A stretch of 64,000 bases of DNA from Patescibacteria group bacterium (GCA_041664365.1 JBAYKW010000002.1:85961-149960); one strand, 5' to 3'. Numbered from the stretch's first letter, positions 5,341-55,900 are shown. Notes: generated from the letters alone by a model not told the origin. A program made the numbers and translations.

Positions 5341-6207
5341 ATGATCAAAAAAATCAGTTTAATAACACTATCCATCGGGGTAGTGTTATTTTTGGCAATT
5401 TATATTTTTGGTAAAAATAATTCAGAGCTGAAAATATATTTTCTGGATGTCGGTCAAGGGGATGCCATCCTGATTCGTACGCCGGAAAATCAGGATATTT
5501 TAATTGATGGCGGGCCGGGCAATATGGTTGTAAATGAAATAGGCAAATTCTTGCCGTTTTATGACCGTGATATTGAACTGATGATTCTGACGCACGCTCA
5601 TTCCGATCATGTTTCCGGGCTAGTGGAAGTGCTTAAACGCTACGAGGTCGATCAAGTGCTTTTTTCCGGGGACGTTATACATAATGCGCCAGATTATTTA
5701 GCATGGCTTGATATTATTTTAGAAAAATCAATTCCGCTAAAAGTTGCAACCTGTTGTGAAACATATAAATTGGGTGATCAGCTGGAATTACAAATCCTTT
5801 ATCCCTTCGAAGATTATTCCGGGAAAGAGCCTGAGGATCTTAATGAAAGCTCTGTTGTATCCCGTCTGGTGTATAAAGATAGAGAGTTTCTGTTTACTGG
5901 TGATGCGCCGATTGAGGTGGAGGAAAAGCTGATTGAAAAAATGATACATATTGAATCGGATATTTTGAAAGTTGGGCATCATGGCAGTAAATATTCCTCC
6001 GGTGAACTATTTTTGGATGCTGTAAGTCCTGACTATGCGGTTATTCAATCCGGGGAGGGAAATAGTTTCGGTCATCCGCATTTTAAATCAATTAATAATC
6101 TGCAAAAACTTAATATAGAAATAATTCGAAATGACCAGTGCGGGACAATTACTATGGAGACCGATGGTATTGATCTGGAACTAAGCAGCGAAAGGTGTGA
6201 TTTATGA
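5341..6207 (+). CDS. Membrane-anchored metallo-beta-lactamase domain protein. Corresponds to the C-terminal MBL domain of ComEC, here encoded as a separate gene.
   Basis: N-terminal TM helix, then YFLDVGQGDAILI (the typical start of the ComEC beta-lactamase domain). ILTHAHSDHVSGL is an HxHxDH zinc motif. KVGHHGS. Confidence 0.75.
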   Translation: MIKKISLITLSIGVVLFLAIYIFGKNNSELKIYFLDVGQGDAILIRTPENQDILIDGGPGNMVVNEIGKFLPFYDRDIELMILTHAHSDHVSGLVEVLKRYEVDQVLFSGDVIHNAPDYLAWLDIILEKSIPLKVATCCETYKLGDQLELQILYPFEDYSGKEPEDLNESSVVSRLVYKDREFLFTGDAPIEVEEKLIEKMIHIESDILKVGHHGSKYSSGELFLDAVSPDYAVIQSGEGNSFGHPHFKSINNLQKLNIEIIRNDQCGTITMETDGIDLELSSERCDL

Positions 6208-6719
6208 AGCGTTATAATATTCCAGGGTATGTGCATTTTGTGACCACGAGAACATATAACAGTGTCCCGTATTTTGGTGATGATGTTTGCTGTCAGATTT
6301 TGTTGGATGTTATCAATCGATTGAGATATGAATTAAAATTCCATCTGGTTGGGTTCGTATTTATTCCGAATCATGTGCATTTATTGCTAAAACTTTGGAT
6401 AGGTTCGAATTTATTCGAACCGGAAGCGAATGAATTCGCTTCTACCCGTGGTAATATATCTTACGTTGTTCAACGAATAAAAGGGACAAGCGCCAGAGAA
6501 ATAGATAGGTATCTTAAAAGAACAGGGAATGTTTGGCAAAAAAGCTTTTACGACTTCAACATCTATTCAGAAAGAAAATTTATCGAAAAACTGGACTATA
6601 TTCATAACAACCCGGTCAAGCACGGGTATGTGCAAAATCCGGAGGATTGGAAATATTCTTCATGGCATAATTACTACCAGGACGATGATTCAATAATGAT
6701 AATTGATAAAATTGATTGA
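6204..6719 (+). CDS. IS200/IS605-family Y1 (HUH) transposase of the REP-associated tyrosine transposase (RAYT, YafM-like) type.
   Basis: FIPNHVHLLL is the HuH motif. YIHNNPVKHGYV...W.YSSW is the conserved RAYT C-terminal catalytic-Tyr region. About 170 aa. Overlaps the upstream gene by 4 nt. REP-like hairpins follow it. Confidence 0.75.
   Translation: MKRYNIPGYVHFVTTRTYNSVPYFGDDVCCQILLDVINRLRYELKFHLVGFVFIPNHVHLLLKLWIGSNLFEPEANEFASTRGNISYVVQRIKGTSAREIDRYLKRTGNVWQKSFYDFNIYSERKFIEKLDYIHNNPVKHGYVQNPEDWKYSSWHNYYQDDDSIMIIDKID
6396..6445. repeat. Copy of the twin-hairpin miniature repeat, lying inside the RAYT ORF in frame. Encodes WIGSNLFEPEANEFAST.
   Basis: ttggataggttcgaatttattcgaaccggaagcgaatgaattcgcttct. 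Hairpin 1 is ggttcgaat-tt-attcgaacc and hairpin 2 is aagcgaat-ga-attcgctt. Near-identical to 6843-6900 and shares hairpin 2 with 49000 and 49955. Confidence 0.6.
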
Positions 6720-6842: not shown

Positions 6843-6900
6843 TTTTGGATAGGTTCGAATTTATTCGAACCGGGCGCGAATGAATTTGCTTTTACCCAAA
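6843..6900. repeat. Intergenic copy of the twin-hairpin miniature repeat. A partial copy lies at 6793-6815.
   Basis: tttttggataggttcgaatttattcgaaccgggcgcgaatgaatttgcttttaccc is about 85% identical to 6396-6445. ttggataggttcgaat occurs three times between 6396 and 6860. Confidence 0.65.
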
Positions 6901-6917
6901 TAGGATATCATTCGCTA

Positions 6918-6961
6918 TAAAATAAATAAAAAACACCCGTCCCATGTTAGTCTGGGACGGG
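6918..6961 (-). terminator. Rho-independent terminator for the minus-strand GC-rich gene.
   Basis: Hairpin cccgtccca-tgttagtc-tgggacggg at 6936-6961. The flanking plus-strand A-run aaataaataaaaaac is a U-tract on the minus strand. Confidence 0.6.
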
Positions 6962-7007
6962 CCACGAATGGAAGGCTCAAGCCTTCAACGTGTCCGACGC
7001 GTGTCGG

Positions 7008-7535
7008 TTACGCGCGGATCACGCCGCTCGTGTTCGCCGTCTTGGCGTCCTGCGTCTTGGTCGTCTTCTTGGCCACCACGGCCGACTTGGGGACTTCGAG
7101 ACTGCTGGTGATGATCACGTGCTCGGCCAGGAGAATTCCACTGGCATCACGAGTTCTCCCCTCGAAGGCGCTGTGGTCATCTCGACTACTGCTCGTCGTC
7201 GCTTCGTGCTTCGTCAGTGACGCATAGTCCGTCGTCTGGAGGACCAGCGTCGAGTTCGCCTCGATGATCGCGGTCGCGCTGATGAACATGAGCACATCGG
7301 CGTTTTCCGCATACTTCGCATCCGCGATCGCCGTCGTCTTGTTGTTGACGTGCGCGATCGTGCCGTCGTTCTGCGCAAAGGCCCAAGCGAGGGTCGTTGC
7401 GCTGCTCAGCTCGTCGGTCCGCGGGGCCGTAGCATACGCGTTGCTCGCGCTCGCGTTGGCCGCCGCCGTCATGATCACGAGAGTCGCCATGATCGTCACG
7501 AAGACCGCGAATCGCGGCCGATGTAGTCGTCTCAT
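7008..7535 (-). CDS. Secreted protein of unknown function, encoded in a GC-rich islet.
   Basis: Start MRRLHRPRFAVFVTIMATLVIMTAAANASA is a signal peptide. GGAGG RBS 8 nt upstream (7544-7548). Region is about 60% GC, against an AT-rich background. Ala/Thr/Ser-rich. Confidence 0.55.
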   Translation of the reverse strand: MRRLHRPRFAVFVTIMATLVIMTAAANASASNAYATAPRTDELSSATTLAWAFAQNDGTIAHVNNKTTAIADAKYAENADVLMFISATAIIEANSTLVLQTTDYASLTKHEATTSSSRDDHSAFEGRTRDASGILLAEHVIITSSLEVPKSAVVAKKTTKTQDAKTANTSGVIRA

Positions 7536-7915
7536 GACAGTTTCCTCCATCCATGAAGGTTTTGTCGCGTCAGTGACGACAAGCTAGGATGTGCGACATT
7601 GTGATGAGCCGCGCAAACAAAAGACCTCCTTTCGGTCAGAAGTGGTAACAAGCATCCCTTTCCGAAGCTTGTTTGGTAGGTGCAATGAAATGCCCAAGGA
7701 AGGGCACTTTATTTATACCACTTGGCTAATCTTAGGTCAAATAGTTAAGATAGTAACTAGTAACAAGTAGCTAGCAATCGGACGGATAATCATTAAATCA
7801 GAATAGGTTTCCAGTTACTGATTACATGTTCCTGCTTACTAATAAATAGATTATTCTAAAATTAACATCCTATATCTCTCTATATAAAAAATGTAAAATT
7901 TGATAAAATACAAAA

Positions 7916-18012: not shown

Positions 18013-18342
18013 ATGAATAATAATACAAATCAGCAGACCGGGGAAAATTTAGAGGAAGAAGCGCGCGCGCTTGGGAAAAAGATAGTGCTTTTATTACAAT
18101 CATCCGATCTACCGGAAGATGTACAGATTTCAATAATTCAGCTGATACCAGATATGACTTTGGAACAAATAGACGAATTGGTTAGTTTATTGACCGAAAA
18201 TGTAGCGCGTGGTGGTGATATAGATAAAGAACTGGCAATGAAGCTCAGTGAGGTTAAAGAAAAATATGATTCTAAACGGGATGATTTGTCCGGTTCTATT
18301 ATGAAAGATCTTGATAATATTGAAAAAGAAATTGACCAATAA
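18013..18342 (+). CDS. Small acidic, predicted all-helical protein of unknown function.
   Basis: 109 aa. No TM helix or signal peptide. Rich in E/D/K/L (heptad-like). Confidence 0.5.
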   Translation: MNNNTNQQTGENLEEEARALGKKIVLLLQSSDLPEDVQISIIQLIPDMTLEQIDELVSLLTENVARGGDIDKELAMKLSEVKEKYDSKRDDLSGSIMKDLDNIEKEIDQ

Positions 18343-18353
18343 CTATTAATAAA

Positions 18354-18701
18354 ATGCAAGCAACTCCTGATTCAAAATTACTTGTTAAGGCGGCGGAAAT
18401 GATTAAAAGTGCTCCGCTGGACGCTGATTTGAAATTGATGCTAATAGAAATGATATTACGTATTGATGATGATAAACTGAAAGAGGTTTTGGCACAGATC
18501 GAACAATATACAGAAGGTAGTAATGAAGACACTCAAAAGCTACGTGCGGTCTTATTTGACATAAAGAAAAATTATGCAGCAAAAATGCAGGAACTAGAAG
18601 TTAAAACAGAACAAGAGCTTCAGACGCTAGAGGCTGAAATAGGAAATGAAGAAGGTGCTGAAAAGATTAAACAAATTCAAAAAAAGATACAAGACATTTA
18701 A
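18354..18701 (+). CDS. Small acidic, helical protein; apparent paralog of the 18013 ORF.
   Basis: 115 aa with similar composition. LIEMILRIDDDKLKEVL and QIEQY loosely parallel IIQLIPDMTLEQIDELV in the upstream ORF. Lies immediately upstream of the giant acidic ORF. Confidence 0.5.
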   Translation: MQATPDSKLLVKAAEMIKSAPLDADLKLMLIEMILRIDDDKLKEVLAQIEQYTEGSNEDTQKLRAVLFDIKKNYAAKMQELEVKTEQELQTLEAEIGNEEGAEKIKQIQKKIQDI

Positions 18702-18711
18702 TTATAAAAAT

Positions 18712-21700
18712 ATGCCAGAACCAACAAGCCCATATAATCCAAGAAATTCATCTATCATTGATGCGGATTTTAATGATATAAAAGATGAGAATGATATTGT
18801 TCCAGGGGGAGATCAAGCTCGAGGGGAGGAATCCGGTACGTCTAATTCGCAAGCTACGCCGGCAGCGGATCGAGGTGGGAGTAAATTGAGAAGAATTTTT
18901 TCTAGAAAAAAAGGTGCGCCAGTATCTGCAGATGCAGTAACGCCGGATCCTGTTGTCCCAACTCCGGATGGTAGTGGAGCGCCTGAAGCAGAGACGGTTC
19001 CAGAATTAAATGCTACGGCAAGAGATTATTTGATGTTTTTGGATATGATTCCTGAAAATGCAGATGATGTTTCGCCTGAAACAATAGCACAAGCAAATGC
19101 CTATGCAACAACACTGGAATCCATCAAGGATGATCCAAATTTTGAACCGATTGTTACTCAAATCCGAGAGAAATTTAATGATATAATGTATCGTTTACAT
19201 CTGGAACCCAGTACCCACAGCAAGAGCGAGTCTTGGACGTACTGGGATATGGCTAAACAGAAATATATAAATGACCATCCGGATCAACAGGACACCAGAT
19301 ATCGTATTGGGGACCCGCTTAAAGACGAAGTGCTTCAGGATCAAATTGCTAGCAGGCAACTGGGATGGGAAATATATAGCAAAAATTCTGTTGGTGTAGA
19401 TCATGGCGACGGATCCGGACTTGTTAGAAAATTTCAGGAGAACGTGTCAATGAATATATTGGATAAAGATAATCCCAATTATCCGGAGATAATGGAATTG
19501 CTAAAGAAAGATGCTAAACCGGAAAACGACACTTTAAGTTCCGTGGATTTAACCCGACTAGGAGCACTAATCAGGCAAAATTTAGGAGAAGAGAATGTCA
19601 GTGTACCTGAAAAAAAGGGTGCAATTTTGGGTAGAATGTGGAAAGGTGAATACATAAGTCAAAAAGAAAAAGATCATGCGAGCGCATGGGAGGAGACCGC
19701 CTGGAACGCCGGTAAATTTGCAGCTGGAGTTACTAAATTATTTGGTGCCGGAACGGCTTTTCGACTTGCTGATCGATGGGCAAAAAGAAATGCCAGATTA
19801 AGCGAAGCTGGAAGGATTATGGGGATACTTGCAGAGGAGAAAAATTTGAGGAAGAGATTAGATTCAACGACAGATGAAGATGAGAAAAAACAGATCAGGG
19901 CGAGATTAGATCAGCTGAATGTAGGTGAATCAGAAACAGGAGATGTTAGAATTCAACAAAGAATGAATTCAATGAGAAAAGAAATTAAAGAATCCAAATT
20001 TCTTTCTCAAGAAAAAAAAGTAAAGCTGGAAGAAAGACTTAGATTATTGGAAGAAAGGTGGATCAAAGGTGAAGCAGAAATACATGCTCAAATGGCGGCA
20101 GATATTGATATTGAACTTGATCGCCGTGACGCTGAAAAAGCAAGAAGGTTAAATGCCTTACAACATGCAATTGAAGGTGAGATCAGCAGTGATTTGGATG
20201 AAAATGTAGGGGAAAAAGCAAAGAAGATGGATTATGTTAAAGAGACGGTGGTGGGTGGAGTGGGTGTTGTGTCAGGTGCATTTACAATTCGTCTCGCCGC
20301 AAGTGGTGCAATTGCTTTAGGTGAAAGATTCAAAAATCTACACGATGCAAAAAAAGATGGTGAAAGAGTAACACCAAAAGAACTGATTGTTGATGGGCTC
20401 TGGGATATGGCTCGGGAGATGTTTGGCCAAGGCAGACTGAAAGGTATGGAGAAAGGAAGAAAGAAAAATATGGCTGTAGCGGGTACTTGGGCAAAGGCAA
20501 TGGTACCGGCAATGATTGCATTGGCTGGTTTTGATGAAGTGAGAGACTATGGTTCGGGTACATTCAGTAAATCAATTCAGCATGCGATAGAAAGGTCAGA
20601 AGAGGTTCAGAAAGCATGGACTGCTGTAATGAACGGTAGCGGTGATGCTGCTAAAGCCGTTTTATTAACACTAAATTGGCAAGAAACATTCCACCGAACT
20701 TTTGGATTATTTAAAGGTTTACATGGTCATGCACCGGATGCTGCACAATCAGAGAATTTGGCAAAGGGCGTGGCTCCTTCAGCAGGGGCATTCACTCCAG
20801 AAGACACTGCGGCACTTAATACACCGCACGCAGAACACTCGGGTGCAATATCAGCGGCGGAAGCTAGCAGAGTTGCCCAGGTTGCTGAGGTAGAGCCTAC
20901 ACCAGGACCGATTACAGCGGAGACTTTGAAATATGACGCACTTAAAAATGCGGGAGTCCAAGGGGGAGCGGTTCCTGACGCGCAGGTGGAACCCAGCGCT
21001 CCGGCTGAAACCAATATTCCTAAATCCGGTGAAAATTTGAGTGCACCGCGTGAGGCAGTTGCTTCAAATGCCGTGGCAGGAACAGATTCTATCCCTCCTA
21101 AGGTAGAACCGCTGGTTGGAGCAGAACAACCTACATCCTGGATGTTAAATGAACAAAGAATAATAAATTTAGAATCAAGCTTTGGAGTAGATTCAGCGGA
21201 TGGTATAACTCCTGAAGATGTGCAAAAGGTAGCAGCTCAATTGCAGGGAGTAAATGCCGATTCGGCGGATGAACTGCTTAAATCCTGGCAGGGCACGCAT
21301 CCCGAAATTGCTAATTCTATTCAGGAGTCTCGAGCGCTTGTTGGATTAGAGAAAGCATTAGGAGTAAACTCATTTGAAGGCCAGGTTTCGCCGGAAGAAT
21401 TGAAAAAGGTTATTGCCGAACTTGCCGGAGAAAATAAAGAAAACGCAGACAAGCTTTTAGCAGCCTGGGAGAGTAAAGGACTGATTGGACACGATGCTGT
21501 TTTAGCCGGACGTTTCCCAATTGAACACCCGTCAATTGAGCATGCCGGATTCCAGACGGAAACCGCGGATGCCAAAGTTGACCTTGCGCTTGATCTAGGC
21601 AAGGAAGGGGCTCCTAAATTTTTGGAGCAGGTGTTTTACCGTATGGCGCTGGATGATGCAAATATCGGTGGTGAGATTACGAACCTGGAAGGAGCTAGAA

Positions 21701-23538
21701 TTTTAAATGTCGGTGCAAACATGACTGCGCTGTCAGAAGGGCATGATATAGCAGGAGTTTCTGCGGAAACCTTTGCAAAATACGTAACGGTTGCGGATGG
21801 AAAATTAGCAATCACAAACTTTGCCGGGTTTCATGAGGAAGTTCTGTCAAAATTAACGGCTCATGCGGAGCAACTTATTACAGCAGATAATGTAGGTAAC
21901 TCCGGTGCAATAGAATATTTAAATAATATTAAAAATGAAACATGGGCGGATATGGCTAAGCCGATTGGTGCGGAAGTAAATCTGGATCAGGCGCAGATTG
22001 AGCATGCAGAAGCCCGTGCGTTTAACGATTTGGTTGATGATACGGGAGAGCAAACTGGTCTTGATAAAAACATTACTAATATTGAAGTCAACGACGAAAA
22101 TACTGGATCATTTAAACTCGCGGGTGAACTTGTACCTGTAGATCACGGTATGATATCTGGAATCGGCGATACGCATTTTGATCAACCAATACCACTGGAC
22201 AGCGAAGCCGGGCATGCGAAACTGCTGGAAGAGGCAAATAGGATTGAGGCACAAAGGATTGAAGCGAATAATTTGGATGACACTGACGATGATATTATTG
22301 GGGATGCGAGTGTTGGAACTGATGCAGATGATGACGATGAATTGTTGGACTTGAAAACTACCGATAATGCAGTAACGCCTGATAATAATACCACTGATAC
22401 CAAACCAGCCGAAAGCACTGACAGCGCGCGCGAAATTCCACGCAGCAGTCTCAACCCTATTCCTAAGACCGAAATACCGGAAGGTATGACGATCAAAGCC
22501 ACGCCGGAAGCGGATCATTTTATGAGGCAGAATGGCATAAGAATTTTTAACGGGCAAATTATCGGTGATAAGTTGCTTCATAAGATTGACTTTATACCTG
22601 AACCGGGGCCAGATATGAATGCCGGTACGACACAAGCAGTGGATTTTAAGATGACGGAAAATGGAAATATGAGAGTTATTGTTACAGATACGGATGGTTT
22701 AAAAGCTATACAAGAAGTCACATCCGCGGGCAAGATAATACATATTCAGGGCGCAGAGAATCTAGGCACAACGCCACCTGAAATCCCGGTTGCACCTGAC
22801 GCAAGTTCAGCAGCTGAAACAGCCGGTGATCAGTTAGAAACAGTAAAAACACCAGACGGAATTACAGCGCGTTTTACTTATGATAATACCGGTAATGTGA
22901 CGGGTGTTAATGTAGAAGGATCTACAAGCGGTGAATCCGGTTCTCTGCAGGATAATTTCAGGGAAAAAATTAAAAGCGCTTGGGAAGCGGCAGGTAAAAA
23001 AGGTGATATTCAATTAAATATTGATAAAGTTGAAATGGAAGCCGGGAAGATTGATCTGCATCGCAGTGTATTGAGTTCAATGCAAGCAGCTGGTCAGGGT
23101 AATTCGCCAGAAGCGGAATTCATGAGACAGCAGATTGAAAGAGCGATCGAGCACACAGAAAAAATATATGGAGATGTATTCAAAAATTCACCGGCTGAAA
23201 GCATCCCTACCAACATAGAATCAAGTGTAGAAATTCCGGCATCACCGCTGGATGTCAAACTTGCCATGGAAAACCTGGTAACCGGTATTCTATCAGATAT
23301 GGACAATGTTTCGCCGGAAGTATTAAAGGCGCTTGACGGTATTGGTCTGGATGATATTGCAAAAATTAACAACACGACTTTGCTGGAAAATATTAGGGAA
23401 GGAGCCAGGGGAGTGATTGAAGAAATTAAAGCTAACCCTCCTTATGGATCCGATACGGAAGTGTTAGCAGCTGTTACTAGGGGGAATAACGCGATTATTG
23501 AAGTGATTGATGCCAGGTTGAGTAAACTGAAAGCATAA
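18712..23538 (+). CDS. Giant (about 1609 aa) acidic, low-complexity, repeat-containing protein of unknown function. No TM helix or signal peptide.
   Basis: Continuous ORF. The start at 18712 directly follows the stop of the upstream gene; an alternative in-frame ATG lies at 18646. Coiled-coil stretch EKKVKLEERLRLLEERWIKGEAEIHAQ. Roughly 50-aa tandem repeats (GITPEDVQKVAAQLQGVNADSADELLKSWQG / GQVSPEELKKVIAELAGENKENADKLLAAWESKG). D/E-rich tracts such as DDTDDDIIGDASVGTDADDDDELLD. Confidence 0.6.
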   Translation: MPEPTSPYNPRNSSIIDADFNDIKDENDIVPGGDQARGEESGTSNSQATPAADRGGSKLRRIFSRKKGAPVSADAVTPDPVVPTPDGSGAPEAETVPELNATARDYLMFLDMIPENADDVSPETIAQANAYATTLESIKDDPNFEPIVTQIREKFNDIMYRLHLEPSTHSKSESWTYWDMAKQKYINDHPDQQDTRYRIGDPLKDEVLQDQIASRQLGWEIYSKNSVGVDHGDGSGLVRKFQENVSMNILDKDNPNYPEIMELLKKDAKPENDTLSSVDLTRLGALIRQNLGEENVSVPEKKGAILGRMWKGEYISQKEKDHASAWEETAWNAGKFAAGVTKLFGAGTAFRLADRWAKRNARLSEAGRIMGILAEEKNLRKRLDSTTDEDEKKQIRARLDQLNVGESETGDVRIQQRMNSMRKEIKESKFLSQEKKVKLEERLRLLEERWIKGEAEIHAQMAADIDIELDRRDAEKARRLNALQHAIEGEISSDLDENVGEKAKKMDYVKETVVGGVGVVSGAFTIRLAASGAIALGERFKNLHDAKKDGERVTPKELIVDGLWDMAREMFGQGRLKGMEKGRKKNMAVAGTWAKAMVPAMIALAGFDEVRDYGSGTFSKSIQHAIERSEEVQKAWTAVMNGSGDAAKAVLLTLNWQETFHRTFGLFKGLHGHAPDAAQSENLAKGVAPSAGAFTPEDTAALNTPHAEHSGAISAAEASRVAQVAEVEPTPGPITAETLKYDALKNAGVQGGAVPDAQVEPSAPAETNIPKSGENLSAPREAVASNAVAGTDSIPPKVEPLVGAEQPTSWMLNEQRIINLESSFGVDSADGITPEDVQKVAAQLQGVNADSADELLKSWQGTHPEIANSIQESRALVGLEKALGVNSFEGQVSPEELKKVIAELAGENKENADKLLAAWESKGLIGHDAVLAGRFPIEHPSIEHAGFQTETADAKVDLALDLGKEGAPKFLEQVFYRMALDDANIGGEITNLEGARILNVGANMTALSEGHDIAGVSAETFAKYVTVADGKLAITNFAGFHEEVLSKLTAHAEQLITADNVGNSGAIEYLNNIKNETWADMAKPIGAEVNLDQAQIEHAEARAFNDLVDDTGEQTGLDKNITNIEVNDENTGSFKLAGELVPVDHGMISGIGDTHFDQPIPLDSEAGHAKLLEEANRIEAQRIEANNLDDTDDDIIGDASVGTDADDDDELLDLKTTDNAVTPDNNTTDTKPAESTDSAREIPRSSLNPIPKTEIPEGMTIKATPEADHFMRQNGIRIFNGQIIGDKLLHKIDFIPEPGPDMNAGTTQAVDFKMTENGNMRVIVTDTDGLKAIQEVTSAGKIIHIQGAENLGTTPPEIPVAPDASSAAETAGDQLETVKTPDGITARFTYDNTGNVTGVNVEGSTSGESGSLQDNFREKIKSAWEAAGKKGDIQLNIDKVEMEAGKIDLHRSVLSSMQAAGQGNSPEAEFMRQQIERAIEHTEKIYGDVFKNSPAESIPTNIESSVEIPASPLDVKLAMENLVTGILSDMDNVSPEVLKALDGIGLDDIAKINNTTLLENIREGARGVIEEIKANPPYGSDTEVLAAVTRGNNAIIEVIDARLSKLKA

Positions 23539-23563
23539 TAAAAAGCAGGGCTCAAAATAATAA

Positions 23564-23598
23564 GTAGGCGCGAATACGTATTCGCGCCTACTGTTTTT
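23564..23598 (+). terminator. Rho-independent terminator, probably bidirectional (ends the giant ORF and the minus-strand GC-rich gene).
   Basis: gtaggcgcgaat-acgt-attcgcgcctac followed by tgtttttgg. An A-run upstream serves the opposite strand. Confidence 0.65.
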
Positions 23599-23734
23599 GG
23601 TAAAGAAAAAAGGTTCCGATCATCTGCAAGTTGCCAAGACGTAATGCTTGGTATAGATGGGAACCTTTCTATGGAACGAGGGGTGGTCGAACGAGGTTCG
23701 ACCGAAAGAGCGGTGCTGCGAATCGGATTCGCAG

Positions 23735-24583
23735 CTACTCGGTGTCGTTCTCGGGGAACGTCACCGGCTGGGTGTTCGCCTTCGCATTGGCGACGAATTT
23801 CGCCGCATGCTTGGCGTTCTCTGGCGACCCATTGTACTTGGCGTACTTGAGGGCCTCCATACAGGCCGCGATATTCACGCGGCCGGCGTTTGCGGTGTTC
23901 AGCAGAATTTCGAACTTGGAATCTGCGGAGGTCTGCCAGGTCTTGATCTCGGCGATCTGGGCCTGCAGGTCGACGACCTCCTCGTTGAGGTTGCCGATGA
24001 TCTGGGCCAGTTTGACGTCAGCGTCGGCGCCGGCGTTAATCTTCTCCTCCAGGTCGGCCCGCAGGGGATTGATCGCGGCCCGCACGCGCGTGTCGATCTC
24101 GATGCGCTGCTTGGCAGCGGCGCGACGTTCGTTGACCTGGAACCACATGGAATCCAGGACTTCATCCAGGGTTGCTTTCTCGTCGAAGGTCTTGAAGCCG
24201 TACCTTTCGACCCAACGGTTGTTGAGCCAGCCCAGCTTCTCCTCTTGACTTCCGGTGGAATCGTCAGCCGCCCACTGCATGCTCTCCTCGAAGGTGAGCT
24301 TGCTGACGGCCTTGGCCCAAACGGCTTCCCGTTCGGACTGCTTCTTGGCCGCGAGCTTCCTGAGCTCGGCTCTGGCAGCTGCCTTCTGCAGGTCGAGCGT
24401 GGTCTGGGCAGTGAATACAGCCTTCAGACTGTCGGCCTGGGTGATCTTGCCGGCGGCCTGCAGCTGGAGCACTTGCTCCTGCTGTGCGGTGGTCAGTGTG
24501 ACCTCCGGCGTCGCGGCGAAGACGTTGGCGATGGACAGGGCGGCCATCAGGGTGACGGCCATGGTCAGAGTGCGGAACTTCAT
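23735..24583 (-). CDS. Secreted Ala/Gln/Glu-rich helical protein, encoded in a GC-rich islet.
   Basis: Signal peptide MKFRTLTMAVTLMAALSIANVFA. RBS gggaggaaacgaagATG. Region is roughly 60% GC. The overlapping opposite-strand ORFs are GC-driven artefacts. Confidence 0.55.
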   Translation of the reverse strand: MKFRTLTMAVTLMAALSIANVFAATPEVTLTTAQQEQVLQLQAAGKITQADSLKAVFTAQTTLDLQKAAARAELRKLAAKKQSEREAVWAKAVSKLTFEESMQWAADDSTGSQEEKLGWLNNRWVERYGFKTFDEKATLDEVLDSMWFQVNERRAAAKQRIEIDTRVRAAINPLRADLEEKINAGADADVKLAQIIGNLNEEVVDLQAQIAEIKTWQTSADSKFEILLNTANAGRVNIAACMEALKYAKYNGSPENAKHAAKFVANAKANTQPVTFPENDTE

Positions 24584-24643
24584 CTTCGTTTCCTCCCAGA
24601 GAGGGCGGTTGTCAATGGCGATCCAGGAATAGGACCGCCGCGT

Positions 24644-24958
24644 TCACTTGCCGAAGAGTCTCGAAAACAGCTTCATGATCAGTATGATGCAGATCGCCAC
24701 AACGTTACCGAAGGCCATTATTATCAGAGCTATTATAGCTGCCTCCATAAAAAATGTATAAGTTGATGGGACCGCATCTCTATCGATCACCCGAATTGTG
24801 ATCGTCATGGAATCGGCCGTGGCGACGTTGCCGGAGTTCAGGATCTGCTCTAGCTGAGCGTTGGTCAATGTGACCTCCGTGTCGGCAGAAGCGGTGACGG
24901 TGATGAACATGACGGCCATCAGGATGACGGCCATGAGAATCGTGCGGAACTTGAACAT
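24644..24958 (-). CDS. Short secreted/membrane protein; N-terminal paralog of the 23735-24583 gene.
   Basis: MFKFRTILMAVILMAVMFITVTASADTEVTLTNAQLEQ aligns with MKFRTLTMAVTLMAALSIANVFAATPEVTLTTAQQEQ. C-terminal TM helix. RBS gggaggaaaataATG. Confidence 0.5.
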   Translation of the reverse strand: MFKFRTILMAVILMAVMFITVTASADTEVTLTNAQLEQILNSGNVATADSMTITIRVIDRDAVPSTYTFFMEAAIIALIIMAFGNVVAICIILIMKLFSRLFGK

Positions 24959-25283
24959 TATTTTCCTCCCAGGGTGGGGTAGGTTGTCAAAGGCAGTGCT
25001 GGTGAATTGCCACTGCCGCGCGTCTATCGTTAAAGGCGGTTTCTCGTTGTTTGTTGGACAACTTACAAGAAAAAGGCCTTACGTCTGCATACTATAATTT
25101 GAGGTTGCAATATCCAGACGTAAGGCGATTTTTGCTAAAGATTCTCTCCTCTACCTATTCAATTGTTAACCGCGTAGTATATACCTAAATCTGCATTTTG
25201 TCAATACTTAAGAAGATAATTTTGGCTATTATTAGCTAAAATGCTTGCAATATTATTTTGTTAACATATAATGAAATGGTCAT

Positions 25284-25700
25284 ATGAACAGATATAAGAA
25301 ACTTATTTACTATTACCTTCCGCCGCTGCTTTTGGCCGGGCTAATTTTCTATTTATCATCAATCCCTGATTTACAGAGCGGATTGCCGAATACTTTTGAT
25401 TTGGTTTTGAGGAAAATAGCCCACATGGCGGAATACGGGCTTTTGGTAATTTTACTGCTGAGAATGTTTTTTAATAATGATGAAATTAAAAGAGACCTGA
25501 AAACCGGAACGGTTAAACATCAGAATATGTTATACCTGGAAATTATCGCGGCCGGGATACTGGTATCATTACTTTATGCTTTGTCTGACGAGTTCCACCA
25601 GGTTTTCGTGCCGGGCAGAAGCGGTTCGCTGTGGGATGCCGGGATTGATTTTATCGGGATTGTTATTGGAACCATCATCTACGACCGCAAACGATGGTAA
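25284..25700 (+). CDS. VanZ-like family membrane protein.
   Basis: LRKIAHMAEYGLLVILL...DEFHQVFVPGRSGSLWDAGIDFIGIVIG matches the conserved VanZ motifs. Confidence 0.6.
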   Translation: MNRYKKLIYYYLPPLLLAGLIFYLSSIPDLQSGLPNTFDLVLRKIAHMAEYGLLVILLLRMFFNNDEIKRDLKTGTVKHQNMLYLEIIAAGILVSLLYALSDEFHQVFVPGRSGSLWDAGIDFIGIVIGTIIYDRKRW

Positions 25701-25709
25701 TTTGAATAA

Positions 25710-25756
25710 AACAAAAACGTAGGCGCGAATTCGAATTCGCGCCTACGTTGTTTATT
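25710..25756. terminator. Bidirectional rho-independent terminator between the VanZ-like gene (+) and rplT (-).
   Basis: aacgtaggcgcgaattcgaattcgcgcctacgtt is a 14-bp stem. Flanked by an A-run and gtttattt. The stem sequence resembles the hairpin at 23564. Confidence 0.65.
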
Positions 25757-25762
25757 TAGAAA

Positions 25763-26358: not shown

Positions 26359-26371
26359 TTGGTTTGTTTAG

Positions 26372-26454
26372 TAGTTGGTAATTCGTAATTAGTAATTAGT
26401 AATTTGTAAGTGGTAACTGGTAATTGGTGATTAGTAATTGGTAATTAGTAATTT
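26372..26454. repeat. Heptameric tandem repeat (GTAATTN) x about 11 in the infC-rpmI spacer.
   Basis: gtaattc gtaatta gtaatta gtaattt gtaagtg gtaactg gtaattg gtgatta gtaattg gtaatta gtaattt. Abuts the infC stop codon. Confidence 0.8.
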
Positions 26455-27065: not shown

Positions 27066-27454
27066 TGGTGGAGATGAGGGGCTTTTCACCCCTGTCTAGC
27101 AAGAAACCATAAAACCTTCTACAAATATAGTTTGCTCTAAGTTTAAATACTTACGTATAGAGCAAACAAAGCCGTAAGTATCGGTCTCCATTTTGGTGTC
27201 CTGATTCATCTGGAGCGCTTGAACCAGTAATCTCGATAATATGACACCCGTTATTTGCCCATCGAGCATCAGCAAAACGGATGGCAGTAGGTTTTAGGCT
27301 ACTGCGGGTGCCAAAGATAAAGATGCAAATGCAGTCTTTACTCTGGACATAAATGATTTGGCATTTATGATTGTTCCAGGATTGATAACGGAGTTCCCGG
27401 AGCTCCGATTTGCTGGTTCTATAATGAACTTACTGTCGATTTTGTAACATCCCC
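27066..27454 (-). ncRNA. ssrA: tmRNA (ssrA) candidate.
   Basis: Immediately downstream of smpB on the same strand. 5' GGGGATG pairs with 3' CATCTCC-ACCA to give a 7-bp acceptor stem with G3:U70 and a terminal CCA. ATCGACAG resembles the tmRNA UUCGACGG region. Internal tag ORF ...AFASLSLAPAVA ends in TAA. T-arm is GGGG-TGAAAAG-CCCC, a non-canonical loop. Confidence 0.6.
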
Positions 27455-48974: not shown

Positions 48975-49062
48975 GTGTCGCGTGTAGGTTCGAATTTATT
49001 CGAACGATTAAAATAAAAGCGAATGAATTCGCTTCTGCTCGGTAAAAATTGTAAGAGCAAAA
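48975..49062. repeat. Twin-hairpin miniature repeat copy (left flank of the LOG gene).
   Basis: gtaggttcgaatttattcgaac ... aaagcgaatgaattcgcttctgctcggtaaaaattgtaagagcaaaatcagaagaaataat. A 60-nt tract is near-identical to 49955-50015. Confidence 0.7.
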
Positions 49063-49139
49063 TCAGAAGAAATAATACAAACTCATTAAATATATAATTA
49101 ATCCATAGGGTTATATTCGAATTCATTTAAAATAAACAC

Positions 49140-49917: not shown

Positions 49918-50015
49918 GTAGTTTCGAATTCATTCGAAACATGTTAACAAAAAGCGAATGAATTCGCTTCTGCTCGGTAAAAATTGTAAGAGAAAAATCA
50001 GAAGAAATAATTAAA
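49918..50015. repeat. Twin-hairpin miniature repeat copy (right flank of the LOG gene), in direct orientation relative to 48975.
   Basis: gtagtttcgaattcattcgaaac ... aaagcgaatgaattcgcttctgctcggtaaaaattgtaagagaaaaatcagaagaaataat. Confidence 0.7.
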
Positions 50016-50087
50016 ATTCTAACAACGATTATCAAAAATTCAAAAAAATAATTATTAATTATACATAATAAATTTTACATTAAAACC

Positions 50088-52906: not shown

Positions 52907-55900
52907 ATGTCCGAATTTTCGGGTAAAAATAAAAGAAAATCAAAAACCAAAAAGAAACTCGTGTTTCTGATTGCTAGAAAATCGAAAAAGAAACCACAAA
53001 GGAGTAAGTCTTGGGGTATGTTAAATAAAGAAAAAAAGCATGCCTTTTTTGTTAGAAAAAAGAAAAAGGATCAAACAGCGGATTGGAAAAAATTATACCA
53101 AAAGAAATCATTTCAATTGGCGACGATTATATCAGTAGCGGTTCTGGCTGGAGCATACTGGATCTACCATGTTGTTGTGATCAATGCTGTCGCGGCAACT
53201 TATACTATTGATACAAAAGCAGAATGGGAAGCGGGCGAATTTTATCCGAATACAGTTGATACAACATCGAGCGCCAATCAGATCAAGATTAATGACGGCG
53301 GTGGCGGAACCTGGGATGGAGATACGGCCGGTTATTTAACAGATACTGCCGGCTATGACTATTGGACATATGACGGACCTTCCTACGGAGCGGATCTGAC
53401 CACTGATGGAACATATATATACCAGATTGTCGGTAACAGAAGGCCATATCTTTTTCGCTACAATCCTGAGACCAATACCTGGAAGCAACTGGCAAATGCA
53501 CCGACCGCATTTTACTATGGCGGTTCGATAACTTATGATGCTTATACTAAATCTCTCTTCGCGATTGACGGCGGTGAACAAAATGAAACGGAACAGGCAA
53601 CCAAACATGTTTATCGTTATGATATTGCCTCGGACACCTGGACAAAAGTAACTGATGCTCCTGACACCTGGGGACTTGGCTCATCTATTGCGTCCAATGG
53701 TACTGGGAAGCTGTACGCAGTGCGCGGAAGGAATACCGATGAATTATGGGAGTATGATATTAATGATCAAAATTATGATACGGGAATATGGGATCAGAAT
53801 TACTCCCAGTTGCCAACCCCGTATTTTGTCTATACGACAAACGGGCAGGCATTGGAGTTTGTTAATGAGGAATATGACGGAAAATGTACTCAAGGATGTT
53901 TATTTACATTGTATGGCAACGGAAACAGAAATTTTTTCCGTTTTGATATCGCGGAAAAAACCTGGTACCACAATTCACCAACCGATCTGACGATCCCGGT
54001 TGCACTGGGTGGGGTGAACTACGGTTCATCATTCGCTTATGACAATGACCGGGGTAATTTATTTTTACTGCATGGCGCTACTCAGTATCCTGCCAATACC
54101 ATTGCTGATAATTTTTCCAAATATGATGTATCGGGTGAAATATGGGATGTAGCGGATACTACCACTCCGGACGCTCCGGGATGGGTGACATATGGGGGGT
54201 CCTCTGTTTATCTGGATGATTTTGTTTATTCGCAGCAGGGGTATAATGGAACCCGTCCGGGACTCTGGAAGTTTGACGTCATCAATAATCGCTGGGATTC
54301 TATATCCACTCCGGACAAGGCCAATGCGGCAGTTCCGGCACTCGGACAAGGATCAACCGGCAATGGCGGAGAAAACGGGCATGTTTTGTATGTACCGAGC
54401 GGGACATATTGCGCGGATGCGGATGGTTGTCTATTTGTTTTTCGCGGAGCAAATTCTACTAGTTTTTGGAGGCGTAATATTGCTGCCAGAACCTGGACTT
54501 CCGATCTGTCGGTTACAAATTTTGGCGCACTGCAACAGGGATCATCTATGTGTTATAACGGCGCTAACCGGATATATGCACTGCATGGTGAAAGTTCACT
54601 GGCATTTTATCAGTATGAAATAAATAGCGAAGATCCTGACACTACTAATACATGGGAGGTATTGACCAGTATGCCGTCGGACCATACGGATGCGGATGAC
54701 TACCCGGATGCCGCTGCCAATGCTTCATATGGTAGTTCTATTACCTGCATGGGTACTACGGTCTATGCCTTAAAGGGTGCAGCATCCGCTGCGGGAAGTA
54801 ATCACTTCTTCAGTTATAACGGTGCTGCTTGGACTCATCTGGAACCATTGCCGCAAAGAGTGTATGCCGGTGCTGCACTTGTAAACGTTCCCTATAATGC
54901 CGGACATCCGGAGTGGTGCGCGGATACTAGCGGATGTGTTTATGCATTTACCGGGAATTTAAGAGGGGATTGGTACAGGTACAATGTCAGTGCAAATACC
55001 TGGACCGCTTTAACTGGCGACAATCTGCCGACAGCCACAATTAATACCGCATCTTTATCCTATGACGGCCAAGGTAATATTTATGCCACGGATGGAAACT
55101 TTGATACTAGAATGTGGAAATACGATATTAATGGTGATGATGGCACATGGTATCAGATTGCGGATTTGCCGGCGCGAGTTGGTTATAATAATGCCTTGGC
55201 TTATGACAGTGTTCACAATAAGATGTATTTCCAGCAGGGTATGGGCACAACTACGATCAGTAGTTTTACCCCGACCGCTAATGCCTACATTGCTTCTGCA
55301 GATTGGATTTCAGAACCGATTGATCTTGGGTTTGTAAACACGTTCACCAGTTTGGTTTCATCAGCGACAACCCCGGGTACTACTAGTGTCGCATTTCAAA
55401 CCAGAACATCTTCGGATAAAGTCAGCTGGTCCGACTGGGCAAATATCGGGGGCGGTGACACGATTCAATCTGATGAAGCACAATATATCCAGGTTAAAGC
55501 AGCTTTAACTTCAGATGGTGTTAATACCCCAACCCTGACCAGTATTACGATAAATTACGATAAGGACGGTACTTCGCCGACAAACCCCTCTGTGAGTGGC
55601 TATGCAGATAGTTTAAAAGCGACCACGCTGACTTCCGGATATGCCAACGGGTATCACTATACTAATCCGTACTTTGAATGGACAGCGCCGACTGATGATT
55701 CCGGGATTGCCGGTTATTATGTCGCCTGGACAACCAATAGTGCTTTTAATCCATCGGACGATGAGGATTATTTTCAAACCGGAACATCATTTGAAGTAAA
55801 TACTGACATGGTCACTGCCGCTCCCGGACCGAATTATTATTTACGAATTCAGGTGAAAGACAATTCCGGCAACACGGCTGCAACCACGACAGCGTTTACT

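Follow-up and report, generated by a model that had tools for sequence, protein, structure and literature searches.

In the AT-rich genome of Borrelia, the vls system offers a precedent for a GC-rich island that encodes a variable surface protein. The vls cassettes have a GC content of 49%, compared with 28.6% for the chromosome, this difference is conserved across species and their GC skew is about 0.5 (PMC11499132). A second described situation in which genes differ from their neighbors in this way is GC-biased gene conversion. In many bacteria, recombining genes have a higher GC content at third codon positions (GC3) than non-recombining genes (Lassalle et al., 2015, PMC4450053). The subject here is a GC-rich block, islet 2, at approximately 23600-25000 in a 64,000-nucleotide stretch of DNA from a Patescibacteria group bacterium (GCA_041664365.1 JBAYKW010000002.1:85961-149960). 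The whole stretch is referred to as the window and positions are counted from its first letter. Islet 2 is a compositional island that is maintained by something other than transfer. Its closest precedent is vls, but it lacks the features that define vls. What is unusual is the combination of conserved GC-rich synonymous sites with alleles that are reshuffled between lineages. What is new, with respect to the literature searched, is an uncharacterized protein family and an undescribed leader RNA.

Islet 2 carries two minus-strand open reading frames (ORFs), at 23735-24583 (282 aa) and 24644-24958 (104 aa). When all ORFs called within the window are compared by GC3, these two have values of 0.84 and 0.70, respectively, whereas the others lie between 0.23 and 0.54 apart from a few outliers. 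There are only three outlier loci: 7008-7550 (islet 1, 0.81), 23735-24958 (islet 2) and 32381-32941 (islet 3, 0.64). At 100-nt resolution the GC content of islet 2 is 0.55-0.69 across approximately 23650-24650 and 0.50-0.60 across 24750-24950. It falls to 0.41-0.45 at 24650-24800, which corresponds to codons 61-80 of the 104-aa gene. The flanks have a GC content of 0.24-0.45 and the compositional steps are sharp at gene boundaries. An earlier reading of the DNA, made without database searches (the sequence-only reading), described a block of about 1.4 kb with a GC content of about 60%. That GC-rich block is real, although its mean is approximately 58% and it includes the dip just described.

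The sequence-only reading also proposed that the two genes are paralogs with homologous N-termini, and the comparison bears this out. The N-termini of the two proteins are 50% identical over 52 aa (BLASTP, E = 3e-11), the first 100 nt of the 104-aa gene are 88% identical to the start of the 282-aa gene and a profile of the 282-aa family also matches the 104-aa protein (P0018, E = 6e-5). The homology consists of the signal peptide and approximately 50 further residues, after which the shorter protein continues into a membrane anchor. This anchor, which had been anticipated, is read from the sequence as a C-terminal hydrophobic stretch of 25 residues. The 104-aa gene is found only in the window genome and at the related locus L001 (119 aa, P0013), and is absent at loci L005, L007, L011, and L083. 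As judged from these comparisons, it is a lineage-specific partial duplicate fused to a predicted membrane anchor. Putative signal peptides were read by eye in both proteins (MKFRTLTMAVTLMAALSIANVFA/AT and MFKFRTILMAVILMAVMFITVTASA/DT) and the feature is kept across the family. A plus-strand ORF at 23657-24766 (369 aa) was considered as an alternative and rejected, because some orthologs interrupt it, whereas every ortholog keeps the minus-strand frame open, with a dN/dS below 1.

The 282-aa protein has just three close homologs (60-66% identity) in a single-sequence search of 5.8 billion proteins, one of which (P0001) is annotated as Patescibacteria by NCBI. A profile made from four orthologs, when compared with 1.84 billion representative proteins, retrieves 18 proteins at E < 1e-3, and E-values for the family profile range from 1e-148 to 1e-4. 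Every family member with a source name or a readable context belongs to the Patescibacteria. Neither protein collection contains a homolog outside of the giant-gene context described below, and there is no relative of the family in viral contigs, phage genomes or plasmids. An alignment of 17 members defines the family traits: a signal peptide, a length of approximately 250-340 aa, an N-terminal motif (L..Q...L.L.A.GK..ADSL), a central motif (W...D....WL..RW) and a C-terminal motif (N..VN..AC...L..AK). A search of Pfam and NCBIfam with the four islet proteins and with the giant and small partners yielded nothing above the cut-offs apart from the DUF5663 match given below.

Genomic context was read at the window locus, at L001, L005, L007, L011, L013, L014, L015, and L083, and for P0024 as a gene list only. 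In all ten contexts the family gene is convergent (tail-to-tail) with a giant gene for a protein of 1400-2100 aa that lacks a Pfam match, and the giant gene is preceded by small genes. In the window this partner cluster occupies 18013-23538 on the plus strand, with small genes at 18013-18342 and 18354-18701 and a 1630-aa giant gene at 18646-23538 that has a GC3 of 0.33. Two types of synteny can be told apart. In six genomes (window, L001, L005, L007, L011, and L083) the islet has the same position between a VanZ-like gene and the giant gene, and the three close orthologs (L001, L005, and L007) share the order L20, VanZ-like gene, islet, giant gene. L013, L014, L015, and P0024 have a Dus-type synteny in which one small gene encodes DUF5663 (PF18908), a domain matched only in the small gene of these Dus-type lineages. 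The giants of the window and L013 are homologous in their C-terminal approximately 250 aa (31% identity over 254 aligned columns, E = 4e-22). The literature searched holds no description of DUF5663 or of GC-rich genes in Patescibacteria. A second giant ORF is present in the window at 52907-61771 (2954 aa), with no GC3 outlier adjoining it.

The GC3 excess follows the family. In each of the nine contexts that were read as DNA the family gene has a GC3 that is 0.3-0.5 above that of its neighbors: 0.84 versus 0.33-0.53 in the window, 0.79 versus 0.33-0.52 at L001, 0.91 versus 0.26-0.48 at L005, 0.89 versus 0.33-0.50 at L007, 0.84 versus 0.26-0.42 at L011, 0.76 versus 0.31-0.40 at L013, 0.59 versus 0.15-0.23 at L014 (where the locus GC is 32%), 0.74 versus 0.33-0.49 at L015 and 0.62 versus 0.21-0.31 at L083. 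Over the nine genomes the total GC content is 0.47-0.65 for the family gene and 0.32-0.45 for the locus. The excess persists down to 22-35% protein identity and at genome GC contents of 32-44%. It is a property of the gene family.

Where does this excess reside? The amino-acid composition of the islet protein (GARP 0.27, FYMINK 0.24) equals that of the neighboring giant (0.28 and 0.25), family proteins and their adjacent giants are alike in this respect, and therefore the compositional shift is at synonymous sites. Fourfold degenerate sites of the family in four lineages have C at 0.43-0.58 and G at 0.27-0.29, compared with 0.14-0.28 for each base in host genes. The coding-strand GC skew is only -0.07 to +0.14 and there are no G-runs. 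The excess extends to the untranslated regions (UTRs) of the unit downstream of its leader terminator, which have 50-60% GC against 33% in pooled host intergenic DNA, and in the window and relatives GC changes abruptly at either end of the transcription unit. Ribosomal-protein genes are not GC3-enriched (L20, 0.36-0.53; L27, 0.16-0.44 in the Dus-type loci L013-L015).

Housekeeping neighbors of the islet are 73-98% identical in protein sequence between close genomes, and host synonymous sites are saturated (NG86 dS of approximately 1 to more than 4, or undefined, for DAGK, VanZ and the giant). A relic of transfer would therefore have ameliorated by now. Furthermore, the GC-richness is reproduced in every lineage whatever the genome GC, and so it must be actively maintained. 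The islet gene itself has a dN of 0.24-0.31 and a dN/dS of approximately 0.4-0.5.

The islet gene is also a mosaic. Its nearest relative changes along its length, with identities of 0.86 between the window and L001 (codons 121-150), 0.93 between L001 and L005 (codons 181-210) and 0.89 between L001 and L007 (codons 231-270). Quartet-informative sites of the islet gene are split 22/28/28 across the three possible topologies, compared with 286/69/67 for the giant gene. These sites are clustered: 44 adjacent pairs support the same topology where 25.3 are expected, a value reached in none of 10,000 permutations. Some segments of the islet gene reach 87-93% identity in pairs of genomes for which the nucleotide identity of housekeeping genes is 71-78%. 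Conversely, L005 and L007 are 93% identical in DAGK, and their islet proteins are just 62% identical. At conserved fourfold codons, synonymous identity is flat across pairs (0.64-0.74, where composition predicts 0.40-0.47). Thus, alleles of the islet gene have been exchanged piecewise between lineages. The differences between orthologs are segmental, not limited to a short C-terminal variable region, and no direct repeat in the window involves islet 2, as the template and variable repeats of a diversity-generating retroelement would. A search for polymorphism within the species found the copies from four samples to be 100% identical throughout the gene.

What does the protein look like? An AlphaFold2 run on the 17-sequence alignment produced an all-alpha model for the 282-aa protein (pLDDT 80, pTM 0.43) with helices at 47-93 and 139-233, the latter 95 residues long. 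This agrees with the helical, secreted-looking product proposed from sequence, as does the hydrophobic, signal-like N-terminal segment. There is no fold match in the PDB. Profile matches to the long helix include the P22 tail needle gp26 (4lin_A, E = 6e-11), a 'conserved membrane protein' (8qox) and reovirus sigma-1. A long unbroken helix with a heptad pattern is what the protein shares with trimeric coiled-coil fibers such as P22 gp26, reovirus sigma-1 and the stalks of trimeric autotransporters. In contrast to these, it has flanking motifs (W..W..D...WL..RW and GRVNIAAC..AL.YAKYN) that are unique to its family, and it resembles none of them at the level of a PDB fold. From gene order and helix pattern, the most economical reading is that the 282-aa product would be an elongated, probably oligomeric extracellular rod that acts with the giant protein.

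The islet 2 transcription unit appears to start at a sigma-70-type promoter (TTGACA-17 nt-TATACT) at 25176-25204 on the minus strand. In a consensus scan it scores 11/12, which makes it the top site within 23450-25350. It is identical in five related genomes and recognizable in L083. The 17-mer GTTAACAATTGAATAGG, which resembles the boxA element of rRNA leaders, follows at 25154-25170 (minus strand) and is present once in the window. Since it begins 5 nt after the -10 box, the predicted transcript would start at this element or close to it, with a terminator and the coding sequence (CDS) further downstream. The terminator (25069-25126, minus strand), read from sequence as a hairpin with a T-run, could be an intrinsic terminator or attenuator. 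Its 12-bp stem has arms at 25126-25115 and 25087-25076, its loop carries a conserved TGCAACCTCAA and its minimum free energy (MFE) is -33 kcal/mol (z = -3.4). The hairpin is kept in six genomes with changes that are only G-U-compatible or one-sided. It is nearly invariant and its TGCAACCTCAA loop is kept even in L083, where the protein is 24% identical. More broadly, the DNA that separates the islet from the VanZ-like gene (25062-25283, minus strand) is near-identical in four close genomes, and L011 and L083 conserve it as well. The leader RNA of approximately 110 nt is more conserved than the protein encoded downstream of it, in a setting where the surrounding coding genes have saturated synonymous sites. 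In L007 it carries a 42-nt hairpin insertion. An Rfam search with the leader found no family at the gathering threshold or at E-values of up to 10.

No usable promoter is present directly upstream of either islet 2 CDS in the consensus scan. In L005 and L007 the family gene lies directly 3' of the leader terminator. Transcription would therefore have to read through the terminator. This brings to mind BoxA/Nus control, as described for rRNA operons and for a few protein genes such as suhB of E. coli (Baniulyte et al., 2017, PMC5725501). The likeness is that of a short conserved element just after a strong promoter. The islet 2 element likewise precedes a terminator and a protein gene, and it shares the 9-mer TTAACAATT with the boxA of E. 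coli rrnH (tgctctttaacaatttatca). Its placement is also of the rRNA type, in the predicted leader, downstream of the promoter and upstream of the CDS. The boxA-like candidate element of the leader is written GTTAACAATTG. On the side of the differences, the gamma-proteobacterial boxA consensus is GYTCTTTAANA (PMC5725501) and the islet 2 element matches only its 3' half, its NusB/NusE site is putative and it is confined to the VanZ-type lineages of the family.

The 17-mer is also found elsewhere. A scan of 185,579 species genomes (approximately 596 Gb) located exact copies of GTTAACAATTGAATAGG in two Patescibacteria relatives and in about 24 genomes of Dehalococcoidia/Chloroflexota. The remaining matches are scattered and their number is, by our own estimate, about that expected by chance. 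In Dehalococcoidia the 17-mer is always 21 nt before the 5' end of 23S rRNA. It occupies the boxA position there, flanked by a small hairpin on one side and by the leader strand of the processing stem on the other. The element at this position fits eight of the ten specified consensus positions. These leaders were examined at L044 (3950-4054) and about 23 other loci (L017-L065). The 23S rRNA genes of these bacteria are solitary with a promoter of their own, and the order is leader hairpin, GCACGTTAACAATTGAATAGG, processing stem. A scan of metagenomes with an 18-mer of the islet 2 leader returned only the two loci already known and chance matches. For Patescibacteria, both scans thus yielded islet leaders alone. 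Judged by these similarities, the leader is a candidate for an element of the rRNA type that acts by antitermination or attenuation. The GC3-rich Dus-type lineages lack it, and so it is not the cause of the GC-richness. We infer that it controls expression.

The two genes have similar 5' UTRs. The one preceding the 104-aa gene (24959-25068, minus strand, GC 0.50) contains TTGACAACC (24982-24990) and GGGAGG (24965-24970). The one between the genes (24584-24643, minus strand, GC 0.60) precedes the 282-aa gene and contains a hairpin (GGCGGTCC..GGATCGCC, 24639-24617), TTGACAACC (24607-24615) and GGGAGG (24592-24597). This layout of hairpin, motif and Shine-Dalgarno sequence is kept in L005 and L007, and the ATTGACAAC motif is also found in L011. 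The existence of an upstream motif common to both genes had been noticed from the sequence and stands. GGGAGG was likewise noticed before each ATG and is present at both as a strong Shine-Dalgarno sequence, but it ends 6 nt and 8 nt upstream of them and not 7-8 nt. How exceptional are these motifs? TTGACAAC, which lies upstream of both genes at 24983-24990 and 24608-24615, occurs six times in the window where 2.6 copies are expected, and 4 of 100 shuffles reach six. GGGAGGAAA is found at 24962-24970 and 24589-24597 and nowhere else in the window. Its two copies compare with 0.8 expected, and 23 of 100 shuffles reach two, so that it is not significant alone. Two roles for TTGACAACC were considered. 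As the -35 element of a sigma-70 promoter for either CDS it fails, since it lacks a -10 box downstream. As a second boxA it is a weak candidate: the islet 2 copies miss the canonical pattern even at one mismatch, and the window contains that pattern no more often than expected (19 matches versus 21.8).

At the other end of the unit is a conserved 3' UTR (23606-23734, minus strand, GC 0.50). It contains a hairpin (CTGCGAATCCGATTCGCAG, 23716-23734) that resembles repetitive extragenic palindromic (REP) elements and a long terminator hairpin with a T-run (23606-23665). The terminator part is nearly identical in four close genomes. The leader and the 3' UTR do not pair into a processing stem like that of rRNA, since their duplex energy is no better than that of shuffles. 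REP-like palindromes (GCGAAT..ATTCGC and GGTTCGAAT..ATTCGAACC) appear to act as terminators elsewhere in the window as well, with sites at 6204-6719, 6394-6447, 6844-6897, 23563-23592, 23716-23734, 25713-25759, 49015-49084 and 49922-50019. One copy is within, and one just 3' of, a Y1_Tnp (IS200-like, RAYT-like) gene that adjoins islet 1.

One further observation concerns folding of the mRNA. The summed local MFE of each native CDS was compared with that of shuffles in which synonymous codons are permuted. Eight family genes are all more stable than their shuffles (z = -3.8, -5.7, -2.7, -3.7, -1.3, -3.9, -6.2 and -2.4), whereas fourteen host controls range from -1.7 to +0.35 save for a Fic gene at -3.05. 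This Fic gene (33183-34073), which lies inside an inverted-repeat segment, is the sole control of host composition with strongly excess folding. When shuffling is confined to blocks of 30 codons, six of the eight family genes stay at or below -2 and four controls lie between -0.6 and +0.7. Palindromic hexamers such as CTGCAG and GAGCTC were considered as the cause and do not account for the signal. The RNA-level folding signal supports selection on the transcript in a way that is suggestive, not decisive.

A gene that is unrelated to the family shows some of the same features. Islet 1 (6925-7740, minus strand) has a promoter (TTGACC-17 nt-TATAAA, 7712-7740), a 5' UTR of approximately 165 nt, a 180-aa signal-peptide ORF (7008-7550, GC3 0.81) and a terminator at approximately 6925-6965. 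An ortholog (P0006) in a relative with a 1.18-Mb sequence (L009) is at the same site, between a YdjM-like gene and a Y1_Tnp-like gene, has a GC3 of 0.85 and retains UTRs that are approximately 90% conserved, in genomes that are saturated at synonymous sites. The 5' UTR of islet 1 (7551-7712; approximately 7830-8000 in L009) includes a possible upstream ORF of nine codons (ATG TCG CAC ... TGA) with a conserved stop. Fourfold sites have G at 0.56 and C at 0.31 in islet 1, C at 0.58 and G at 0.28 in islet 2 and a moderate bias in islet 3. The G-richness of islet 1 is found in both genomes.

How might these observations fit together? Our reading is that islet 2 is an old, vertically inherited unit, seemingly restricted to Patescibacteria, that encodes a diversifying secreted protein and whose GC content is kept high by selection on the transcript. 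The vertical inheritance, the fixed pairing with the giant gene, the conserved synonymous GC excess, the fast protein evolution, the recombination mosaic and the conserved leader with its terminator are shown, whereas the reason why GC is kept is inferred. The account as a whole is put forward tentatively, as something quite possible but short of probable. The family product would enter the Sec pathway by its signal peptide, followed by long alpha-helices, and act outside of the cell as an oligomeric partner of the giant. Such an extracellular partnership is suggested because the gene is always tail-to-tail with the giant membrane/surface cluster. Fast protein evolution together with exchange of segments between lineages by homologous recombination would be the pattern of an exposed protein under diversifying selection. 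Selection on the transcript would keep GC high by favoring a heavily base-paired, GC-rich and long-lived mRNA. This mRNA would be made from the strong promoter via the conserved boxA-like leader that ends in the terminator hairpin, and the level of expression would be set by read-through of that terminator, by antitermination or attenuation. Islet 1 is an unrelated gene that is built in the same way, with a strong promoter, a long and conserved 5' UTR and a secreted product, and it has the GC3 bias and the vertical inheritance as well. Transcript selection is favored because the excess covers the UTRs and reaches no further than the transcription unit. It is also favored because the base usage is strand-asymmetric, gene-specific and conserved, and because excess folding is found in most lineages.

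Several observations do not fit this scheme well. The excess folding is diffuse, with structured windows whose positions are not conserved. L011 has no excess folding (z = +0.3 in block shuffles) and neither has islet 1, which is equally GC3-rich (z = -0.2 and -0.7). Therefore, structure alone is not a general explanation. The leader is found in VanZ-type lineages only and the Dus-type lineages that lack it (L013-L015) are GC3-rich nonetheless. Its element, CGCGGTTAACA, fits only positions 6-11 of the gamma-proteobacterial boxA consensus, the 3' half. The stem of the leader terminator shows no compensatory double changes among the six genomes. For the protein, the coiled-coil profile match is confined to the long helix and may be compositional, and both its function and its partnership with the giant are deduced from gene order only. 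Finally, the strong evidence for recombination fits biased gene conversion equally well.

What if the recombination itself were the cause? GC-biased gene conversion at a recombination hot spot would drive synonymous and UTR sites toward GC with no selection on the RNA. The locus of a diversifying surface protein would recombine frequently with DNA acquired from relatives, and G/C alleles would be preferred when the heteroduplex is repaired. This is the main rival, unlikely on balance but to be taken seriously. The intragenic mosaicism with three equally supported topologies, the segments that are far more alike between genomes than their housekeeping genes are and the flat synonymous identity across pairs, as would result from a shared pool of alleles, are all in its favor. 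So is the enrichment of UTRs as well as codons, and the highly conserved 5' and 3' flanks could be recombination anchors. The species of the window and that of L007 occur together in one sample (ERZ27249449), which provides a physical opportunity for recombination between lineages. There is also precedent for elevated GC3 in recombining bacterial genes (PMC4450053), which islet 2 resembles in that its difference from non-recombining neighbors is mostly synonymous. Three features of islet 2 are not those expected of gene conversion. Conversion is strand-symmetric, yet fourfold sites on the same strand are strongly asymmetric, with a preponderance of C in at least four lineages of the family and of G in islet 1 and its ortholog. 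The base usage is thus gene-specific. GC changes stepwise at the ends of the transcription unit, and excess folding over synonymous shuffles is not predicted. We know of no bacterial gene whose GC3 has been reported as raised by 0.3-0.5 through gene conversion.

A second alternative is that the codons matter for translation. Mycobacteria have stress regulons that are enriched in particular codons, which are read via changes in tRNA modification. In a similar manner, rare GC-ending codons might tie translation of the islet genes to particular tRNAs or modifications, giving either a switch that depends on conditions or a slowed translation in aid of secretion and folding. The extreme and gene-specific GC3 would be in keeping with this, as would the lack of enrichment in ribosomal-protein genes and the signal peptides read from sequence in all islet products. 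Moreover, codon usage is particular to each islet and is retained by its orthologs, with GCC/ACC/CTG-type codons in the family and GCG/ACG-type codons in islet 1. However, two codon usages would require two tRNA switches, and high GC is also found where the unit does not code for protein (0.50-0.60 versus 0.33), which makes codon control improbable.

The sequence-only reading regarded the islets as a family of imported secreted-protein genes. A recent import from a GC-rich donor, be it a bacterial host, a phage or a plasmid, and not yet ameliorated, would explain the strongly atypical composition and codon usage, and secreted proteins such as those encoded by all of the islets belong to a class that is often transferred. 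Islet 2 does resemble horizontally acquired genomic islands in its atypical GC and codon usage, its sharp borders and its secreted products. Nevertheless, import is refuted for islets 1 and 2, and overall it is a very unlikely explanation. Islet 2 has a fixed position in six genomes, the same partnership in ten contexts and a GC3 excess in all nine DNA contexts that endures at 22-35% identity, in hosts whose dS is saturated. The offset has thus outlasted synonymous saturation, which is unlike an acquired island. The search for a donor lineage found none, since the homologs with a source or context are all Patescibacteria and no homolog from outside the giant-gene context appears among the 5.8 and 1.84 billion proteins. 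The borders of islet 2 have no repeats and no integrase or other mobility gene, only the REP-like terminator palindromes. Islet 1 is syntenic with a GC3-rich ortholog, which again speaks for vertical inheritance. The idea of one family across the islets fails too: an all-versus-all BLASTP detects no relationship among the proteins of islets 1, 2 and 3. The resemblance that was seen is therefore partial. All three GC-rich loci encode signal-peptide-like N-termini, but their fourfold codon usage differs, being C-rich in islet 2, G-rich in islet 1 and mild in islet 3.

Only islet 3 fits the profile of an acquired island, and its import is plausible. It is part of a 3.1-kb segment (31533-34612) that also contains a DUF350 gene, a small secreted-protein gene and the Fic gene. 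The segment is bounded by 143-nt inverted repeats (31533-31675 and 34470-34612) with arms that are 91% complementary. It is absent in L001 and L011, where different content lies between a PF1765-like gene and ileS. Islet 3 itself (32335-33019, minus strand) has a promoter (TTGACA-17 nt-TAAGCT, 32991-33019), a 186-aa signal-peptide ORF (32381-32941, GC3 0.64) and a terminator. Its product is an orphan with a single match, a 113-aa fragment of 99% identity in an NCBI Patescibacteria assembly that is probably of the same organism. Residues 111-183 have a weak likeness to a sorting domain of type A of the type IX secretion system (T9SS), a beta-sandwich that is FlgD-Ig-like (TIGR04183, E = 0.046, below the cut-off). 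Such a domain, if real, would be unexpected in Patescibacteria.

Could islet 2 be an expression site of the vls type, rewritten within a strain from silent cassettes by a mechanism that needs high GC? The parallels with Borrelia vls (PMC11499132) include a conserved, gene-limited GC-rich island about 20 points above the genome, an alpha-helical surface protein and segmental recombination. The segmental variation of the islet gene and the partial paralog directly upstream of it in two genomes would be in line with such a mechanism. However, a repeat search of the 64-kb window reveals neither an array of silent cassettes nor any other copy of the gene body, and the upstream paralog is limited to the signal peptide and approximately 50 residues. 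The slight coding-strand skew (-0.07 to +0.14) and the lack of G-runs are likewise unlike vls. In addition, the variation is between lineages and is not seen within a strain: where one species was assembled independently from four samples, the gene showed 100% identity throughout. The protein family has no relation to that of vls, and the locus is chromosomal, beside housekeeping genes. Antigenic variation of this kind is accordingly a highly improbable explanation.

Sharp compositional steps at gene boundaries could also arise if GC-rich fragments of another organism had been joined to an AT-rich contig, but such an artefact is refuted to the point of negligible probability because the same junctions recur in independent records of ENA, JGI, Logan and NCBI, which differ in sample and assembler (the window locus is matched at 100% over 8315 nt in ENA ERZ27249449 and the orthologous locus is assembled identically from four JGI/Logan samples), the locus has the same structure in nine genomes and the reading frame is conserved with a dN/dS below 1.

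The remainder of the window contains a number of housekeeping genes, namely infC-rpmI-rplT, smpB, the transfer-messenger RNA (tmRNA) gene, argS and ileS. The tmRNA gene (27066-27454, minus strand) adjoins smpB and scores 113 bits with Rfam; it was unreported by ARAGORN. There is one tRNA gene in the 64 kb. A degenerate tandem repeat of 7 nt (GTAATTR) occupies 26371-26454, between infC and rpmI, where an L20-type leader is expected. Between smpB and argS (28011-28096) are three copies of a 26-nt motif (GTGTAGGGTAGCTTGGATGAAGTTAT) with a spacing of 30 nt, adjoined by a palindrome at 28145-28194.

Compositional islands are routinely read as transfer. Here, a GC excess of 20 points is a heritable property of a gene family and the usual reading is wrong, which is a caution for annotation pipelines that label such genes as foreign. 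If transcript selection is the true cause, this would be a rare bacterial example of selection at the mRNA level that reshapes nearly every synonymous site of a gene. If it is biased gene conversion, islet 2 would, to our knowledge, be by far the strongest gene-scale case in bacteria. In either event, an uncharacterized secreted coiled-coil protein is always paired with Patescibacteria giants, which are candidates for host attachment. Perhaps some Patescibacteria keep a few secreted or surface genes as a GC-rich, base-paired, 'stable-RNA-like' expression class, launched (at least in the VanZ-type lineages) from an rRNA-type leader. This is a rather doubtful proposition. If it were true, GC-rich codon usage would be a selected property of the transcript, serving its stability, its protection from AU-directed RNases or its uncoupling from translation, and it would have been maintained throughout the existence of the family. 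Such a compositional code, specific to particular genes, would be distinct from horizontal transfer and also from the usual translational codon bias.

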